From a virus (Duplodnaviria > Heunggongvirae > Uroviricota > Caudoviricetes), in the IMG/VR virus record IMGVR_UViG_3300020451_002055: a stretch of 64,000 bases of DNA. The stretch is one strand, 5' to 3'. The notes below the pieces were generated by a model. That model was not told the origin of the DNA, searched no databases, and was given only the letters and a program-made list of their open reading frames with translations. Shown in pieces: positions 3,813-33,879 of this stretch. Position 1 is the stretch's first letter; every line of letters starts with the position of its first letter. The position numbers and the translations under genes were made by a program.

Positions 3813-4759
3813 GTCATACTTAGCGTGCCCGAGTTTGGATCGTGGTTGTAGAACCGTTCAAGCAGCGTCCCCTTATACCTGCCTACTACCTTGCCGAATG
3901 ATTTGCGGTTGCCCCATTCAAAGCCCCACTTGCGTTTCCATATGTCAAGATGCTCCGCTTGTTCAAAGTAGTAGTTGTTCTCTTTGTTCTTCGTATATTG
4001 AGCGGAGTTGCGAGGAAGACCCATTTCTTGCTTGAGGTCTGGTCTGTGTTCTATGTAGAGATCAGGCAAAGCTACATTGTAGATGTTCTGTTTCAAGAAC
4101 TGAAAGCATACATCGTCCCATCCCAAATGAAATCTCAAGTCTTGGTCTGGTTGTATATTCTCTAGGTAGGATTGAACGTTGACCCCTATTGCGAACCAGG
4201 CCACTGACTCAATAGGAAAAGGCTTGCGATACTGCTTGTTCATACTAACTGCGGGATACAACTTCGGCCTAGCAGAATAGGACGAATACCATGCATAGCC
4301 TTCAAGGGGCGCTCTCGCCATAACTCCAAGCGGTCTGCCGCCTTTCCGCATGACCTTCATATGCTTACCGTGATTCTGAACCGTATCGGTAGCAAGAGCA
4401 TTGAAGCCGATAGTTCCGTATTCATCGAGGTCGCCCGCTTCTATCTTGCCTTTCAGTTTCTCGAAGAAGTCAGATTCAATGGGCCAGCAATCATGCTGAA
4501 ACCATAGCATCCATTTGATTCCTTGCTCCGCGAAATATCTGGCTGCTTGATGGGCGTTGTTCTGAACTCCGGGCACATCGCGATCTAGGTACTTGATGCC
4601 TTGAGCTTCGCAGAATTTTTGGCCGATGGCTCGCTGCTCTTCATCAGAGCCTTCATCAATATTGAGAACCGGGCAACCGCATGAAGACATATGAGGCCAC
4701 CAATGCTTTTCGAAGAAAGCATAGTTGTTCTTACTGACGACGTATACGCCTACGCTCAT
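3809..4759 (-). CDS. Putative GT-A fold (GT2-like) glycosyltransferase
   Basis: NIDEGSD, WFQHDC, WDDVC and WKRKWG motifs; context. Confidence 0.6.
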
Positions 4760-5808
4760 TCGGTCTCCGATCGAACGATGTCTTGGATGATCGCCTTGAT
4801 GTCATACTGACGCTGCCAGTTCGGGTAATGGGTCTCGAACTTGCTCGTATCCGATATCCACCAAAGATGGTCTCCAACTCTGTTCTGTTCTTGATAGCTG
4901 TAGTCAAGCTTCTTGCCCGAGAATTCTTCAGCCATGGAGATCGCTTCGAGCATAGAGCAGTTCGAGTATCTGCTGCCTCCAATGTTGTAGACCTCTCCGC
5001 TTCGAGGGTTCTTGTAGAACTCGTAGAAAGCGGTAGCCAAGTCATGAGAATGTATGTTATCTCTGACTTGCTTACCCTTGTATCCGAAGACCGTATACGG
5101 CTTGCCATGAACAACGCATTTGACCAAGTAGGAAAGGAAGCCATGAAGTTCGACGCCGGAATGACATGGACCAGTCAAGCAGCCACCTCTGAAGCAGGCG
5201 GTATTGAGATCGAAGTAGCGACCATACTCTTGAACCATAACATCTGCAGCAACCTTGCTCGCCCCAAAGATGCTGTGGGTTGAGTTGTCAATCGAAAGCG
5301 TTTCATCGAAACCTTGGTAGAACTCGCTTCTCAACGGAGCTTCGTACCTCGTCTCAAGTTCTTCATACTCGAAGATGTTAGGCCTGTCTCCATAGACTTT
5401 GTTGGTTGATGTAAAGATGAAAGAAGCTTCGGGCGAATGTTGCCTGTAAGCTTCGAGCATATTCATTGTTCCTACCGCATTGACGCCGAAGTCCGTATGA
5501 GGCTCTTTGGCTGCCCAATCATGAGAAGGCTGAGCGGCGCAATGAACAACGAGATCAATGTCCGAGTTGAATCTGCTGAAGACTTGATCTATCGCGTCCT
5601 TGTCTCTGATGTCGGCATTCATATGGACATATGAGTCGTAGTCCTGCAATTTCGATACCATGCCATCTGTTGATCCTCGATCCCCAAAGAAGTAAGAACG
5701 CATGTTGTTATCGATACCAACAACTTCAAAGCCTTTGTTCAAGAAGAACAAACAAACCTCTGAACCAACAAGGCCTCCTGATCCTGTAACGATAACTACC
5801 TTAGACAT
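4756..5808 (-). CDS. NAD-dependent epimerase/dehydratase, CDP-tyvelose(paratose) 2-epimerase-like
   Basis: [42 protein letters not shown]. Confidence 0.88.
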
Positions 5809-28049: not shown

Positions 28050-28697
28050 TTAGAACGGAACGTCGTCGTCATCGACCTCGGAACCGCCGGTAGGTGCAGA
28101 TGCAGTTGCAGTCTGCGCCGTTGGCTCCTTGAGGCCGAGCTTCTCTTCGATCTCGTCCTGAGGCGTTGCCTTGAAGATTTCCATCAGGTTGTGAAGGTTC
28201 TTGCCCTTCTCGCCGATCAACTCCTTTTCCTCGTCCGTAAACGGAGCCGGATCAAGAGGAGTCAGGTGATAGCGAGTCGTGCGAGGATCGTTTGGGTTCT
28301 GACGCTCGACGCGGATCATGAAATCAACGCCCTCGTTCTTACCCGGATCCTTCTTGCGAGCCGATGCCCAGTTGGAAACGTCCTTGTAAAGAGTTACAGG
28401 CATTTCCATGACCATGAGATTGCCGCTACCCCTATCAATGACATTGATAGCGTATCGCTCGCTCGGGTTCATGTTGTAAGTGTTGCGGATTACGCAGTCG
28501 TCGCCGCCATTCGTAATGGCCGAACGACCTCGCTCCCCATTCTTGCCGTTGACATAGTAACGGAAGAACCTAATCGGCTTGGCTACGAGTCGAACCGTGT
28601 ACTCGTTTCCTGCCTTTAGACGCAGGAAAGTTTCGCCTTTGCCGCCGCCTCCACGGTTGGAGGTTGACGTATCGCCCCAATCTACTACTTCGCTCAT
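28050..28697 (-). CDS. ssb: Phage single-stranded DNA-binding protein (gp32-like)
   Basis: FLRLK.G....VRL, RYAINVIDR, DP...EGVDF, acidic tail EVDDDDVPF; between dnaE and recA. Confidence 0.78.
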   Translation of the reverse strand: MSEVVDWGDTSTSNRGGGGKGETFLRLKAGNEYTVRLVAKPIRFFRYYVNGKNGERGRSAITNGGDDCVIRNTYNMNPSERYAINVIDRGSGNLMVMEMPVTLYKDVSNWASARKKDPGKNEGVDFMIRVERQNPNDPRTTRYHLTPLDPAPFTDEEKELIGEKGKNLHNLMEIFKATPQDEIEEKLGLKEPTAQTATASAPTGGSEVDDDDVPF

Positions 28698-28904: not shown

Positions 28905-30062
28905 TCAGAAGCTCACTTCTTGAGGTCCGCCTGACTCATCTTTCGGCTTAGGAGAACGGCTCGGCGAGACTTTCACAGTCGAATTGTCATCGAGCGAATC
29001 GAATCCATCATCTGCTACAGAAGTCGTCCGTGCCTGACTCTGTTTTTGCGGCGCTCCAAACTTTTCAGGAGACGGACCGATACCGGTCAGAGTGACCTGA
29101 CGGCTCAGACTGTCGTATGCCGCATCGAGGTTGTTAAGGATGTCCTTGGAGGTCTCGAACAAGCCTTCAAGCTCATTGTAATACTCCTCCATGTCTCTCA
29201 TATGCTCGTAGTTGACTCCATCCTGCTTTGCGGCAGGCTTTTCATAAACAACCCGAGCAAGCTGTCCATGCATCATGGGAATCAAACGCTTCCAAAGGAA
29301 GTATTGAGAGTTGATGATAGACTTGATCTGAACGACCCTATCTCGCTTCTGCTGAATCGCCTGCATGCGATCTGCAATAGCGTCCTTGTCGCTCAAGCTG
29401 ACGCGGATGCTAACATAGGCATCATGCATCTCTTGGGTCCATTTATCAGTAGGCAATCTCTTGCCGTCTGGCAAATGACGTTGAAGCGTAGTTCGCTTCA
29501 TTTCATAGAACTTGGAGAACATTGGAGTAGGATGATCAACAAGGAATCCTGCCTCCCTTAGAGCATCAAACTCATCTCCCTCAGACGACTTGGAGTCTTC
29601 TACTTCCGGCGATGGTTGTTCAGGAGCCTCAGAATCGTCGTCAGATTCGGCCCCATCTTGACTCCCATCTCCTGAGAGTTCTTCGGGCTCATCAGATGAA
29701 GAGTCATCGGCTTTTTGCTCTTCCAGCGGTTCATCCGGTTCGGATCCGGATTCGCCTTTAGCTGCATTCTTCGCGTCGGTGATGATTGATGCGAAATCTC
29801 GCTCTTCTTGCTGTTCTGATTGCCCATCCGAAGCCTCCTCGTTAGATGAGTTAGTAGTTTCATTTTCGTCTGCGTTAGACGCTTTTGCTACGGCTTCGTT
29901 TACAGCTTTTGCCTTATCCTCAAAGCTTGTTTCTTCCGAGGATTTTATGACTGCAGCATATGCCCCTTCTTGGGACTCGTCAGATATGTCGTCATCTGTA
30001 TCTATGTTGCTGCCATCAGTAGGCACTCCGAATATATCGGCTAGTTCATCTGCGTGTCCCAT
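28905..30062 (-). CDS. Hypothetical protein: acidic disordered N-half plus helical C-half (possible recombination mediator)
   Basis: SD GAGGAG; D/E/S-rich first ~160 aa; coiled-coil-like second half. Confidence 0.65.
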   Translation of the reverse strand: MGHADELADIFGVPTDGSNIDTDDDISDESQEGAYAAVIKSSEETSFEDKAKAVNEAVAKASNADENETTNSSNEEASDGQSEQQEERDFASIITDAKNAAKGESGSEPDEPLEEQKADDSSSDEPEELSGDGSQDGAESDDDSEAPEQPSPEVEDSKSSEGDEFDALREAGFLVDHPTPMFSKFYEMKRTTLQRHLPDGKRLPTDKWTQEMHDAYVSIRVSLSDKDAIADRMQAIQQKRDRVVQIKSIINSQYFLWKRLIPMMHGQLARVVYEKPAAKQDGVNYEHMRDMEEYYNELEGLFETSKDILNNLDAAYDSLSRQVTLTGIGPSPEKFGAPQKQSQARTTSVADDGFDSLDDNSTVKVSPSRSPKPKDESGGPQEVSF

Positions 30063-30427: not shown

Positions 30428-32470
30428 TTATCCAAAAATATCCTGAGACATAACCCCTTTTCGACGAGAGCGCTTCATGTCTTCTCGTAGTCCACTAAAC
30501 TGATTGACATGATGCTCAACCGGGATCTTCTTGCCCTTCTCGTCCTTCGTCCGGAAGAATCCGGCGATCGCCAGAGACTCAACAGATTTGGTATCAACCT
30601 TCTTTGGATCCGTTTTGAATGCCAGGTCTCTCATGTCCTTGTATGGGGCATTCTCGATAATGTCTTCGGCTGCCGCCTTCGACAAGCCCTTGCATCGAAT
30701 AGGAGGTCTGATCTGCGAATAGGCTACGCCAGAAGACTCATCCTTCTTTGCAACGATCTCGTACTTCATGCCGCACTTGTTGAGATTGCGAGCAAGCATC
30801 TTGATCCCCATCTGATCCGTGCATTCTTTCTCAAGAACCTCGATCTTCTCATACTTAGCTCTGTTGAGTTCGACGTTCAGATATGCGCAGATGAACTCCT
30901 CAGGATAATGACACTTGAGATATGCCGTTTGATAGGACAAGAAACCATAACAGCATGAGTGAGACTTATTGAACGCATAGTCAGCAAACGGTATAATGAC
31001 CTTATCCCAGTAAGCCTGAGATACCTTAGGATCTACGCCGTTCTCTTTGCTTCCGGCAACGAACTGCTTCTCATACTTATCAAGGATGTCTTTCTTCTTC
31101 TTACCGACCGCCTTGATCATTCCGTAGCCATCAGTAATCGAGAAACCGGCAAGCTCGTTGCAAACCTGCATGACCTGCTCTTGGTAACAGAGAATGCCAT
31201 AGGTCTCATCAAGATACTTCTTGACGTATGGTTCAATCGACTCATGGAAGTACGATATCCTCTCATCGCCTCGCTTTCGGGCGCAATACTGAGGAATAAA
31301 CTCCATTGGACCAGGCCGATACAATGCAACGCCTGCGATGATATCCTCAAAACAGTCAACGCCGATCTGTTTCATGGTCCTTTGCATACCGGGCTCTTCG
31401 CATTGGAATACGCCGACAAGATTACCGGTCCGATATAGCTCGAACACTTCTTGGTCATCAAGCGGTATGTCTTCGATACTAAAATCAGCAAGATGCTCAT
31501 AGTTCTCGCGGATCAAGGAGATGCATTGCGAGATAACAGTCAACGTGCTAAGAGCAAGAATATCGAACTTGATGAGGCCCATTGATTCAAGGTCGTTGTA
31601 TTCGAACTGAGTCGCATACTCATATACCTTCTCAATGTTCTCTCCGTCGCCAGCAGACTTGATAATACTGGTCTGCCGGAGAGGGGCTATCTCATCAAGA
31701 GGACAATCTGATATAACGATACCTGCAGCATGAACTCCATAGACGGATAGGAGACCCTCAATAGACCTTGAATGGGTGAGGAGATCAGGATACTGATCAA
31801 TGTAGTATCTAAAGTCTCTGCAATACTTGTACGCATCTTCAACAGTCTTAATAGCATGTTCTTCCCCATCTTCTCCTTTGACCTTCAGCACCGCTCCGTA
31901 CTGCGGAGGCAATGACTTGATGATCTGATCGGCTTTGTCTCTTGTTTCAGCCGTCCATTGTTCTCTGCCTTGTCTAGTTGGCTGCCAAACGCCGTCCGGG
32001 TCAAGGGCCTTGAACGCTTTCCTGAGGAAGCTCCTCATCTTCAGAGCGCCATACGTCCCTATATTTCCTACATTCTCTCTGCCATACCGTTCGATGATGT
32101 AGTCATAGACTTCCCGCCTGCGCTCGTAGTCAAAATCAGTATCGATATCAGGAAAACCCGCTCTAGCAAATGCACGACGCTTCTCTAGGAACTCGCCTTC
32201 CGGCTGCTTATGCGTCATGCCTATGGCCCATGCTGTCCAAGAGTTGACTCGGTTGTCCGAACCGGCTCTCCCCCTGGAAGCATGAAGTGCCTTGACGAAC
32301 TCTTCGATTACCATCTTGCCATGTAGCCCCTCAGTCTCATACATGCGCTTGACTTCATCTTTGATGGACTGCTTAATCTCATCAGCCTTTGGATGAGAAT
32401 TGATACGCTCCGTAACCTCCGGCTCCTTGAGAGCGGCAATAACTTCTGCTTTAGCATCTTCTGCTGCCAT
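30428..32470 (-). CDS. dnaE: DNA polymerase III alpha, catalytic C-terminal part (palm/thumb/fingers/HhH; no OB or CTD)
   Basis: FPDIDTDF, GVHAAGIVI, GLIKFDILAL, GVFQCE, ALYRPGP, ILCYQEQVM, YAFNKSHS, AYLKCHYP. Confidence 0.95.
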   Translation of the reverse strand: MAAEDAKAEVIAALKEPEVTERINSHPKADEIKQSIKDEVKRMYETEGLHGKMVIEEFVKALHASRGRAGSDNRVNSWTAWAIGMTHKQPEGEFLEKRRAFARAGFPDIDTDFDYERRREVYDYIIERYGRENVGNIGTYGALKMRSFLRKAFKALDPDGVWQPTRQGREQWTAETRDKADQIIKSLPPQYGAVLKVKGEDGEEHAIKTVEDAYKYCRDFRYYIDQYPDLLTHSRSIEGLLSVYGVHAAGIVISDCPLDEIAPLRQTSIIKSAGDGENIEKVYEYATQFEYNDLESMGLIKFDILALSTLTVISQCISLIRENYEHLADFSIEDIPLDDQEVFELYRTGNLVGVFQCEEPGMQRTMKQIGVDCFEDIIAGVALYRPGPMEFIPQYCARKRGDERISYFHESIEPYVKKYLDETYGILCYQEQVMQVCNELAGFSITDGYGMIKAVGKKKKDILDKYEKQFVAGSKENGVDPKVSQAYWDKVIIPFADYAFNKSHSCCYGFLSYQTAYLKCHYPEEFICAYLNVELNRAKYEKIEVLEKECTDQMGIKMLARNLNKCGMKYEIVAKKDESSGVAYSQIRPPIRCKGLSKAAAEDIIENAPYKDMRDLAFKTDPKKVDTKSVESLAIAGFFRTKDEKGKKIPVEHHVNQFSGLREDMKRSRRKGVMSQDIFG

Positions 32471-32481
32471 ATTAGACTCCT

Positions 32482-33879
32482 TTAGTACCTATCTACGCCA
32501 CCCATATCGTCTTCTGTATCCCTGGCGTCATCAGATGCCACAAGGGTTTGCAGGTCGATATCGTCGTCGCCGAAATTGAAGTCTTGCTCGGTTACAAAAT
32601 ACTTGTCATCGAAGCCAAGGAACCTTTCCCAAAGAAGTCCATACTTCAAAGGATCAGGTCCGTAAGAGATGTTTAGACATCTCAGAAGAACGCTACCGAA
32701 GCCGGAGCCTCTACCGCAGCCAACGATGATGTCTCGATCTTTCGCCGCAATAATGTAGTCTCGAACAACAAGGAAGTAAGTCGCAAAGTCGTAGCGATTG
32801 TTTTCCCAGACAACCTGAACATCTCGCAACTCCATTTTCAGTCGCTCGACATGCTCGGGACTATTCTCCCAACCCAACTCCTTCAAGCCCTGATAAGCCA
32901 AATGTTCAAGGTAGTGATATGGGTTAGAAAAGTCTTCAGGTATCGGATACCTTGGGAGCCTCATCTTGCCGGTCAGATTCTCCATGATATTTTCGCTGTC
33001 AACAGATGCCGCAATCTCCACCGTATTGGTTAGGAGATTGGGATGAGAACCGAAATGCATCTGCATCTCATCAACAGATTTGAGATAGAACTCATTGAAC
33101 GGGAAATGGATATGCTTTGGATCAGTCAAGCACTTGGAGGTATACATAGCCATGAGTAACTCCTGCGAAACGCCTTGGCATTTTTCGCAGTAGTGACAAT
33201 CATTACTCGCAATGCATTTGCAGTTCAGTTCATCTGAGAGCTTCAGTACGTCTGGAATGATCATAGCTTCCGCATCGATGCCATGATACATGACTTCGAG
33301 GAAGAAATCTTCGCCGAAGAGTTCCTTGAACTTACCGGCAGCCTTGCGTGCCTGATCGTATCTGTCATGGAGTAAGTTTGCGTTGACAACGCTACTCAAA
33401 CATGCAGAAGAACAGATCAGTCCCTCATGATGCTTCTCTAGAAGGTCGAAGTCAATTCGAGGATCTTGAAAGGCGTATCCCTCTGTCCATGACGCCTGAG
33501 ACAATCTGCAGAGGTTCTGATATCCGGTCCAGTTCTTTGCAATGAGGACGAGGTGACGATTACCCTTGCGGCCATCGGTCTGCCCCTCTTCAAGGACATT
33601 GCCTCGCTTGTCTTTCTTGTTCTTGAAATGGACATGACGGTCTTTGGCCAGATAAAACTCGCAGCCTACGATCGGCTTGATGCCGACCTTCTTGCACTCG
33701 TTCATGAACTTGAACGCGCCGCCCATGTTGCCGTGATCGGTGATCGCTAGAGACTCGAAGCCCATCTTGGCTGCGTAAGCCGGAAACTTGCTGACCTTGT
33801 TGACACCATCAAATGCTGAGTATTCCGTATGATTATGCAGATGCACGAAGTCCGCATTAGTGAGCTTCTTCTTAGCCAT
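32482..33879 (-). CDS. dnaE: DNA polymerase III alpha, N-terminal part (PHP plus start of palm)
   Basis: HLHNHTEYSAFDG, AITDHG, GCEFY, HLVL, SNDCHY, YFLVV.D, GCGRGSGFGS, DPLKYGLLWERFL. Confidence 0.95.
   Translation of the reverse strand: MAKKKLTNADFVHLHNHTEYSAFDGVNKVSKFPAYAAKMGFESLAITDHGNMGGAFKFMNECKKVGIKPIVGCEFYLAKDRHVHFKNKKDKRGNVLEEGQTDGRKGNRHLVLIAKNWTGYQNLCRLSQASWTEGYAFQDPRIDFDLLEKHHEGLICSSACLSSVVNANLLHDRYDQARKAAGKFKELFGEDFFLEVMYHGIDAEAMIIPDVLKLSDELNCKCIASNDCHYCEKCQGVSQELLMAMYTSKCLTDPKHIHFPFNEFYLKSVDEMQMHFGSHPNLLTNTVEIAASVDSENIMENLTGKMRLPRYPIPEDFSNPYHYLEHLAYQGLKELGWENSPEHVERLKMELRDVQVVWENNRYDFATYFLVVRDYIIAAKDRDIIVGCGRGSGFGSVLLRCLNISYGPDPLKYGLLWERFLGFDDKYFVTEQDFNFGDDDIDLQTLVASDDARDTEDDMGGVDRY

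Follow-up and report, generated by a model that had tools for sequence, protein, structure and literature searches.

How does a phage assemble a replicative polymerase when the gene for it is cut through the region that encodes the active site? C-family polymerases are the main bacterial replicases, and in the solved examples compared here the catalytic core always lies on one chain. The IMG/VR virus record IMGVR_UViG_3300020451_002055 (Caudoviricetes), of which we analyzed one stretch of 64,000 nucleotides (nt; the window), instead encodes its DnaE-type polymerase in two consecutive minus-strand genes, gene 1 (465 amino acids, aa) and then gene 2 (680 aa) in the window's list of open reading frames (ORFs), with the break falling downstream of the GRGS and ERFL motifs and upstream of PDIDTDF. 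From sequence comparisons and structure models, we judge that the two genes probably encode two subunits of one C-family, DnaE-type replicative polymerase whose active site is built from both chains. The genes are separated by 11 nt and lie in different reading frames, and gene 2 starts at an ATG at 32470:

32482-33879, minus strand: gene 1 (465 aa), with the PHP exonuclease domain, the N-terminal, nucleoside triphosphate (NTP)-binding half of the DnaE palm (palm-N) and an acidic tail.
32482-32484, minus strand: stop codon TAA of gene 1.
32477-32482, minus strand: Shine-Dalgarno sequence AAGGAG of gene 2, read from the sequence, overlapping the gene 1 stop and 6 nt before the ATG.
30428-32470, minus strand: gene 2 (680 aa), with an N-terminal head, the catalytic palm, thumb, fingers and HhH/beta-binding domain, without an OB fold.

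A preliminary description of the window, made from the sequence alone, had reported a split DnaE whose second gene has its own Shine-Dalgarno sequence after an 11-nt gap, and its coordinates, ORFs and junction all proved accurate. An 11-nt gap between differing frames could come from a single-base error, and the split might on that ground be artefact or decay, that is, an error in assembly or sequencing, a pseudogene, or a single product restored by frameshifting, bypassing or protein splicing; we hold this to be highly improbable. The exact proteins occur on 11 contigs, the longest of 486,961 bp. Word-based searches returned 5,799 gene-1-like proteins (E-value, E, below 1e-20) and 7,238 gene-2-like proteins (E below 1e-30), so that homologues with the same two lengths number in the thousands; the best 120 of each are mostly 430-480 aa (gene 1) or about 650 aa (gene 2), carry the expected Pfam domains and in many cases come from contigs of 200-500 kb. 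Both genes were located in 25 distinct loci of related viruses, gene 1 standing upstream of gene 2 on the same strand at distances of -8 to 2936 nt, and the ORFs lying between the halves there include a Dam-type methyltransferase, a dCMP-deaminase-like protein, an S-adenosylmethionine (SAM) methyltransferase and others to which Pfam assigns no function. One translated product is impossible in most of these relatives, because up to 2936 nt and other genes part the halves. Gene 1 has its own conserved C-terminus, while gene 2 has its own Shine-Dalgarno sequence and a conserved N-terminus. Assembly error and a single spliced or bypassed product, two of the outcomes that the preliminary description had raised against itself, are thus contradicted by the 11 contigs and by the relatives' intervening genes, and the survey of relatives that it had envisaged yielded the 25 loci with both genes and the thousands of homologues. 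The split is real and old. The arrangement is common to hundreds of related phages, and its source here is a giant marine phage; a nucleotide search of isolated phages found nothing close.

Protein splicing is further addressed by a Pfam search at E up to 1, which found no intein or Hint family in gene 1 or gene 2, as the preliminary description had said of intein motifs, while the same search detected the inteins of L076, L049 and L004 as positive controls. In split-intein DnaEs, Hint halves and splice-junction residues flank the break, whereas the window genes have neither. The absence of an intein at the break is convincing because inteins are common in the relatives' polymerase and easily recognized there. 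Pfam likewise found no homing endonuclease between the genes in the family loci, and an endonuclease origin of the family split is unsupported. Separately, the genes carried between the dnaE halves as cargo (for example L015:2675-3553, L020:4405-4926 and L039:3377-4030) show that this intergenic site accepts insertions.

What does each chain bring to the polymerase? Gene 1 comprises the following elements:

33283-33843, minus strand: PHP domain (PF02811; Pfam aa 13-199), metal ligands H15, H17, D24, H49, E74, H109, C160, D227 and H229.
32617-32922, minus strand: palm-N copy 1 (aa 320-421; PF07733), with three helices, beta1, the GRGS loop, alpha2 and alpha3 ending in ERFL.
32704-32715, minus strand: GRGS (aa 389-392), the canonical GS motif by which the Pol-beta-like palm binds NTP.
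32485-32616, minus strand: gene 1 tail (aa 422-465), with a GFDDK-F...DF junction, a variable acidic linker and a terminal GGVDRY (32485-32502).

Pfam places the PHP domain with E 6.4e-47 and profile positions 2-98 of PF07733 at aa 323-425. All nine PHP metal ligands and G389-R390-G391-S392 are invariant among 116 gene-1 homologues, in keeping with the earlier statement that gene 1 retains the PHP ligands, GRGS and ERF; for the NTP-binding role of GRGS we rely on established knowledge of DnaE and Pol-beta-like nucleotidyltransferases. The gene 1 palm-N matches a profile of unsplit phage DnaE palm-N segments with an hhalign P of 8e-33, and its beta1-GS-alpha2-alpha3 part (aa 382-421) has a mean pairwise identity of 76%, the highest within gene 1. 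The preliminary description had correctly recognized the acidic tail and missed its conserved end: the linker has a mean identity of 26% and the last ten residues 80%, the terminal GGVDRY is common to most homologues (tails of about 30 compared), the GFDDK-F...DF junction is conserved, and F423 and D433 are invariant among the 116 homologues.

Two further observations concern the N-terminal region of gene 1 relatives. The gene 1 homologues of L017, L040, L029 and L042 are 845-879 aa long and carry an insertion of ~1.1-1.4 kb after residue 73 (GCEFY region), which is probably an intein inside the PHP domain. The viral DnaE ORFs of L005-L013, about 1150-1200 aa, are matched by gene 1 in tblastn only from aa 313-343 on, and their N-terminal part may be a very divergent PHP or something else.

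Gene 2, downstream of its head, supplies the remainder:

32153-32179, minus strand: junction RRAFARAGF (aa 98-106), where gene 2 is most conserved.
32132-32152, minus strand: PDIDTDF (aa 107-113), the strand with two of the three catalytic aspartates, D108 and D110, aligning to PDIDTDF of Thermus aquaticus Pol III alpha.
31562-31564, minus strand: D303 in GLIKFDILAL, the likely third catalytic aspartate, aligning to GLLKMDFLGL of 2hpi.
31037-31546, minus strand: fingers domain (aa 309-478; PF17657, E 3.5e-49).
30548-30808, minus strand: HhH/beta-binding domain (aa 555-641; PF14579, E 4.5e-8).
30431-30448, minus strand: C-terminal SQDIFG, resembling a clamp-binding motif; the family consensus at the C-terminus is GVxSxDxF-x.

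Besides the fingers (PF17657) and HHH_6 (PF14579), Pfam matches positions 8-260 of PF07733 to aa 16-306 of gene 2. D108, D110 and D303 are invariant among 98 gene-2 homologues, and D303 is presumably equivalent to D555 of Escherichia coli. In the same 98 sequences R98, R99, R103 and F106 of the RRAFARAGF junction are invariant, and mean pairwise identity reaches 82% over aa 97-106. At the C-terminus, G672 and F679 are at least 90% conserved, and the last residue of the gene 2 model aligns to E. coli residues 923-926; the internal clamp motif of that enzyme (QADMF) lies at 920-924. No OB fold was matched by Pfam in gene 1 or gene 2, while L049 gave one in the same search; gene 2 thus ends after the HhH/clamp motif, as first described. 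Taken as a DnaE, the pair has the PHP domain with its nine ligands, a Pol-beta-like palm (divided between the chains), the fingers and the HhH region; it lacks the C-terminal OB fold and tau-binding domain, and its catalytic core is not on a single polypeptide.

To place the two proteins on solved enzymes we used AlphaFold2 models of each chain alone. The gene 1 monomer (mean predicted local distance difference test, pLDDT, 87.0; tail aa 427-465 disordered, pLDDT below 50) aligns over aa 6-424 with residues 7-415 of Mycobacterium tuberculosis DnaE1 5lew (VIA Z 39.0, root-mean-square deviation 4.1, 393 residues aligned) and with residues 2-395 of E. coli 2hqa in VIA. The gene 2 monomer (pLDDT 89.9) aligns over aa 103-680 with residues 397-923 of E. 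coli 5fku (VIA Z 24.4) and over aa 106-663 with residues 419-933 of 5lew (VIA Z 27.2). From these alignments the two chains tile a canonical DnaE without overlap (E. coli 2-395 and 397-923). The RRAFARAGF junction, with a pLDDT of about 50, is the least confident part of the gene 2 monomer model, as expected if this segment becomes ordered by its partner. The head (aa 1-96) is helical and confident in the same model (pLDDT 82-96), and in the whole-chain alignment it is not superposed on any solved DnaE.

What, then, is the head? Its features are:

32183-32470, minus strand: head (aa 1-96), helices at 3-14, 17-24, 29-45, 54-65 and 78-82.
32240-32263, minus strand: head loop G70-x-x-N73-x-V-N76-S77, collinear with canonical G-R-G-S-A-A-G-S in the hhalign register.

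The head is a diverged palm-N copy. A profile of aa 1-97, which leaves out the catalytic strand, matches a profile of 21 unsplit phage DnaE palm-N segments with an hhalign probability of 92.5% (P 4.7e-7, 61-82 collinear columns). The true score is 40.5, against 11.1 for the reversed target, at most 13.8 for 20 column shuffles and at most 12.2 for 16 other windows of both proteins, and the P values of the controls are all at least 0.08. Five separate DnaE lineages each match the head in one register (P 1e-5 to 8e-4), and among 7,028 ORFs the best matches of a head hidden Markov model outside the family fall on the palm-N of unsplit DnaEs (E 0.004-0.08). The ESM Atlas model of residues 1-100 gives template modeling (TM) scores of 0.68-0.71 over 90-93 residues against PF07733 clusters, one of which is a gene-1-like, 470-aa protein of PHP plus PF07733. 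When the two proteins are aligned to unsplit phage DnaEs, gene 1 as far as aa 436-443 and gene 2 beginning at aa 65 share one subject stretch in one frame, such as nt 5001-5138 of L047. The echo of the palm that the preliminary description had seen at the start of gene 2 is therefore borne out by profile and structure.

Alone, the head has no PF07733 match in Pfam at E up to 10, in the window or in four relatives; its profile finds no DnaE chain among PDB sequences at E up to 10 with hmmsearch (the top matches are unrelated, E at least 0.13); and among 1.84 billion representative proteins, at E up to 0.001, the 74 clusters that it retrieves all belong to the head family and none is a canonical DnaE. 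The hhalign match between the head and the palm-N profile of gene 1 itself is not significant (P 0.17-0.31). Homology of the head to the gene 1 palm-N therefore rests on transitivity, and we do not claim the head as a copy of the resident gene 1 segment; judged by sequence, it resembles other DnaE lineages, and a tandem duplication of the resident gene is not supported. Of the four echoes of the end of gene 1 listed at the outset, three lie in the hhalign register; palm-N homology stands, a detectable similarity to gene 1's own copy does not. The fourth, RRAFAR with ERFLNPER, is rejected: the L031 protein contains both ERFL and RVFARPGF in one chain. Within the head loop N73 is invariant, G70, N76 and S77 are at least 90% conserved, and position 75 is isoleucine in most homologues and valine in the window. 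At position 72, the counterpart of the canonical GS glycine in the alignment, the residue varies, and beta1 is polar rather than hydrophobic. Mean identity in the head is 57% over aa 66-96, versus 76% for the equivalent part of gene 1 (aa 382-421), and drops to 23% over aa 1-28.

Relatives of the window pair show what the head accompanies. L031 has one 998-aa ORF without a head, in which ERFL is followed by 18 residues including RVFARPGF and then by PDIDTDF; L037 is also single-chain across the junction and headless, and in both the gene-1-type copy is joined directly to RVFARPGF-PDIDTDF. L030 (1103 aa) and L032 (1102 aa) are single ORFs in which the gene 1 body, without the acidic tail, runs into the head. 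All other family loci examined are split. Of the 74 head clusters in the 1.84-billion-protein library, three long proteins (P0254, P0265 and P0256) have an internal head, and in nearly all the others the head begins within the first few dozen residues. A maximum-likelihood tree nests the single-chain forms inside the split clade (Shimodaira-Hasegawa-like approximate likelihood ratio test support 89-93), and approximately unbiased tests do not reject basal single-chain forms (p 0.065 and 0.20). Either order may hold on these sequences, canonical to duplicated to split or the reverse by re-fusion and deletion. The "duplication and fission" first proposed for the window fits a family that includes three architectures.

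With two palm-N segments flanking one cut, which of them completes the active site? We infer that the proteins form a heterodimer, that the gene 1 copy sits at the active site and that the head and tails have roles in assembly. Gene 1 would contribute the PHP exonuclease for proofreading and that half of the palm which binds NTP (beta1, the GRGS loop, alpha2 and alpha3), and gene 2 would supply the Mg-binding aspartates D108, D110 and D303, the thumb, the fingers, the HhH/clamp-binding region and the terminal clamp-motif-like peptide. The active site would form only upon association of both chains, which are presumably translated from one message, with the gene 1 stop overlapped by the Shine-Dalgarno sequence of gene 2. 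The head, having lost the canonical GS loop and the hydrophobic beta1, would most likely be an assembly or docking domain outside the catalytic center, and candidate interface elements are RRAFARAGF of gene 2 and the acidic junction and terminal GGVDRY of gene 1. The preliminary description had left two alternatives, a heterodimer with a two-chain site and an autonomous polymerase with a detachable proofreader. The first is the better supported, because the models tile a solved DnaE without overlap and leave the head out, because GRGS is invariant within the most conserved part of gene 1, because headless single-chain relatives use the gene-1-type copy, and because the head residue at the GS glycine is variable.

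The second alternative, which we think unlikely, would make gene 2 a PHP-less polymerase in its own right, with the G-x-x-N-x-I-N-S loop of the head as a modified NTP-binding subdomain, gene 1 as a detachable PHP proofreader and the gene 1 palm-N as a relic with a structural or docking role. In favor of this, the head is genuinely homologous to palm-N and confidently modeled, it lies directly before the catalytic strand in sequence, like the canonical copy, and its conserved G70, N73, N76 and S77 are collinear with the canonical loop. However, the whole-chain structural alignment does not put the head at the canonical site, its GS-glycine equivalent is variable and its beta1 polar, the headless single-chain relatives rely on the gene-1-type copy, and a relic would hardly be expected to keep an invariant GRGS within the best conserved segment of gene 1. 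Less likely again is that the head serves as a regulated placeholder, shielding the half-open site of free gene 2 until it is displaced by gene 1, so that the polymerase would be licensed only together with its proofreader. The head has the same type of fold as the piece that must dock, is tethered to the body by a flexible, low-confidence linker and is under purifying selection while evolving faster than the core, all of which would suit such a switch; the switch itself is inference only, and the single-chain L030 and L032, which retain the head, would gain nothing from it.

Several observations weigh against our preferred reading of one polymerase with a two-chain active site. The polymerase content is known for the 64-kb window only, and other polymerases are possible outside it. 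The monomer model places the head with uncertainty, because the linker at aa 96-108 is of low confidence. The retention of G70, N73, N76 and S77, collinear with G-R-G-S-A-A-G-S, makes an altered NTP loop in gene 2 conceivable. The head persists in the single chains of L030 and L032 and so does not serve only to hold two chains together. Finally, the GGVDRY tail is missing from a large subgroup of gene-1 proteins and for that reason cannot be a universal glue.

Is the window family alone in breaking DnaE here? In the distant split DnaEs of L060 (646-7397) and L064 (2102-7355) the break falls in the same region, and the halves are 1.2-2.9 kb apart; plain BLASTP suffices to align their heads to canonical palm-N, the overlap being about 88 residues, and their gene 2 products, of 837-856 aa, have an extra C-terminal part. 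L093:2715-5708 holds an independent intein-free split in another DnaE lineage, and a LAGLIDADG ORF (4003-4854) separates the halves. Compared with its unsplit relative L087, its gene 1 is 64% identical and its gene 2a 82%, and by sequence the locus looks mosaic; its 89-aa head contains ENTINSYIMWIYGIV, recalling INSWTAYALGMT of the window family (hhalign P 3e-4). L076:2629-5708 (also L077) has a split intein inside GRG/S (a slash marks the break) and a free endonuclease-like ORF (4094-4903) between the halves, and L049:3351-7370 has a contiguous LAGLIDADG intein at the same GRG/S point; the loop of phage DnaE that binds NTP is a site of intein insertion. Taken together, L060/L064, L093, L076/L077 and L049 mark the palm region as a hot spot for mobile elements and breaks.

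A second site of breakage was seen within gene 2 itself. In L003:5956-8434 and L004:3762-8553 gene 2 is broken again at FGC/HAAG, and the halves resemble a split intein, the N-part starting CLA..T.ILT and the C-part ending VHN/C or VHN/S; the L003 halves had no intein match in Pfam. Between its gene 2 halves L004 also carries a free ORF of 308 aa, and it has a LAGLIDADG intein at YGVLC/...SN/CYQEQ.

A more sweeping scenario, to which we give somewhat less than even weight, is compatible with these comparisons. A large clade of huge phages would use an obligate two-chain C-family polymerase, its nucleotidyltransferase sheet completed across the interface, and a retired duplicate half-site would have become an assembly domain. 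The series of 998-aa, 1102-1103-aa and two-gene forms would record fission by duplication and complementary degeneration, and the same outcome would have arisen in, or spread to, at least two other phage DnaE lineages near an intein/homing-endonuclease hot spot.

How does the pair compare with known polymerases and known gene splits? It has the same domains in the same order as single-chain DnaE/Pol III alpha with an active PHP (M. tuberculosis 5lew/7pu7, T. aquaticus 2hpi/3e0d, E. coli 2hnh/5fku), with 31-36% identity over the aligned structure and VIA Z of 39.0 for gene 1 and 28.9 for gene 2. Unlike these enzymes, it consists of two polypeptides, the cut falling after alpha3 (ERFL) and before the catalytic strand, with an extra diverged palm-N of ~96 residues at the cut; the acidic tail of gene 1 closes with GGVDRY, and gene 2 finishes in a clamp-motif-like peptide, without an OB fold or tau-binding domain. 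Two-gene dnaE is familiar from the cyanobacterial split-intein DnaE (DnaE-n/DnaE-c) and recurs in the split-intein phage DnaEs of L076/L077 and L003/L004, the L076 break lying about 30 residues upstream of the window's; split-intein halves, unlike the window pair, are spliced into one chain. T4-like phages have a split NrdA (Aeromonas phage Aeh1) and a split gp43 DNA polymerase, whose unspliced pieces are thought to reassemble, with a free-standing homing endonuclease gene at the break. An endonuclease ORF is likewise found at the break of the distant L093, in contrast to the window break and the scanned family loci, which have none; the enzyme families also differ, and we know of no duplicated flank in T4-like genes in pieces.

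The closest precedent comes from group 2.2 jumbo phages, for which passages of Iyer et al. (2021, Viruses 13:63, PMC7824862) describe a minimal, intein-free Pol III alpha in two pieces, an N-terminal protein that binds NTP and a C-terminal one that binds Mg and the template, the pair being proposed there to reconstitute one enzyme. Compared by description, that cut falls at topologically the same place as in the window pair. As described in those passages (PMC7824862), the minimal enzyme has no PHP or other Pol III domains, is encoded by genes far apart, accompanies a family B polymerase and shows no duplicated palm piece; the window pair, in contrast, is near full length with PHP, fingers and HhH, 11 nt separate its genes, and a duplicated segment adjoins the cut. 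A full-text literature search found no description of a PHP-bearing split DnaE, and we regard the window split as a PHP-bearing variant of this comparable, known phage Pol III alpha split. As a natural, intein-free cut through the active site, it would show where the C-family fold tolerates a break, and the pair would offer a natural system for uncoupling proofreading and dNTP binding from the binding of metal and DNA. The coexistence in one phage family of canonical, internally duplicated and split forms would constitute a rare stepwise record of essential-gene splitting. For annotation, both genes are better called subunits of one polymerase than truncated or broken dnaE.

The genes neighboring the pair form a replication module, with a UvrD-type helicase, RecA, a DnaB-type helicase and an ORF (28050-28697, minus strand) that may be an SSB; this putative SSB has an acidic ...EVDDDDVPF end of the type that recruits partners to bacterial SSB. 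A very acidic, 385-aa protein without a Pfam match is encoded at 28905-30062 (minus strand), beyond a 111-aa ORF and 366 nt downstream of gene 2. L002 (8137-9285), L003 (8957-10015) and L004 (8888-10066) have similar proteins following gene 2, making this acidic protein a conserved neighbor of gene 2.

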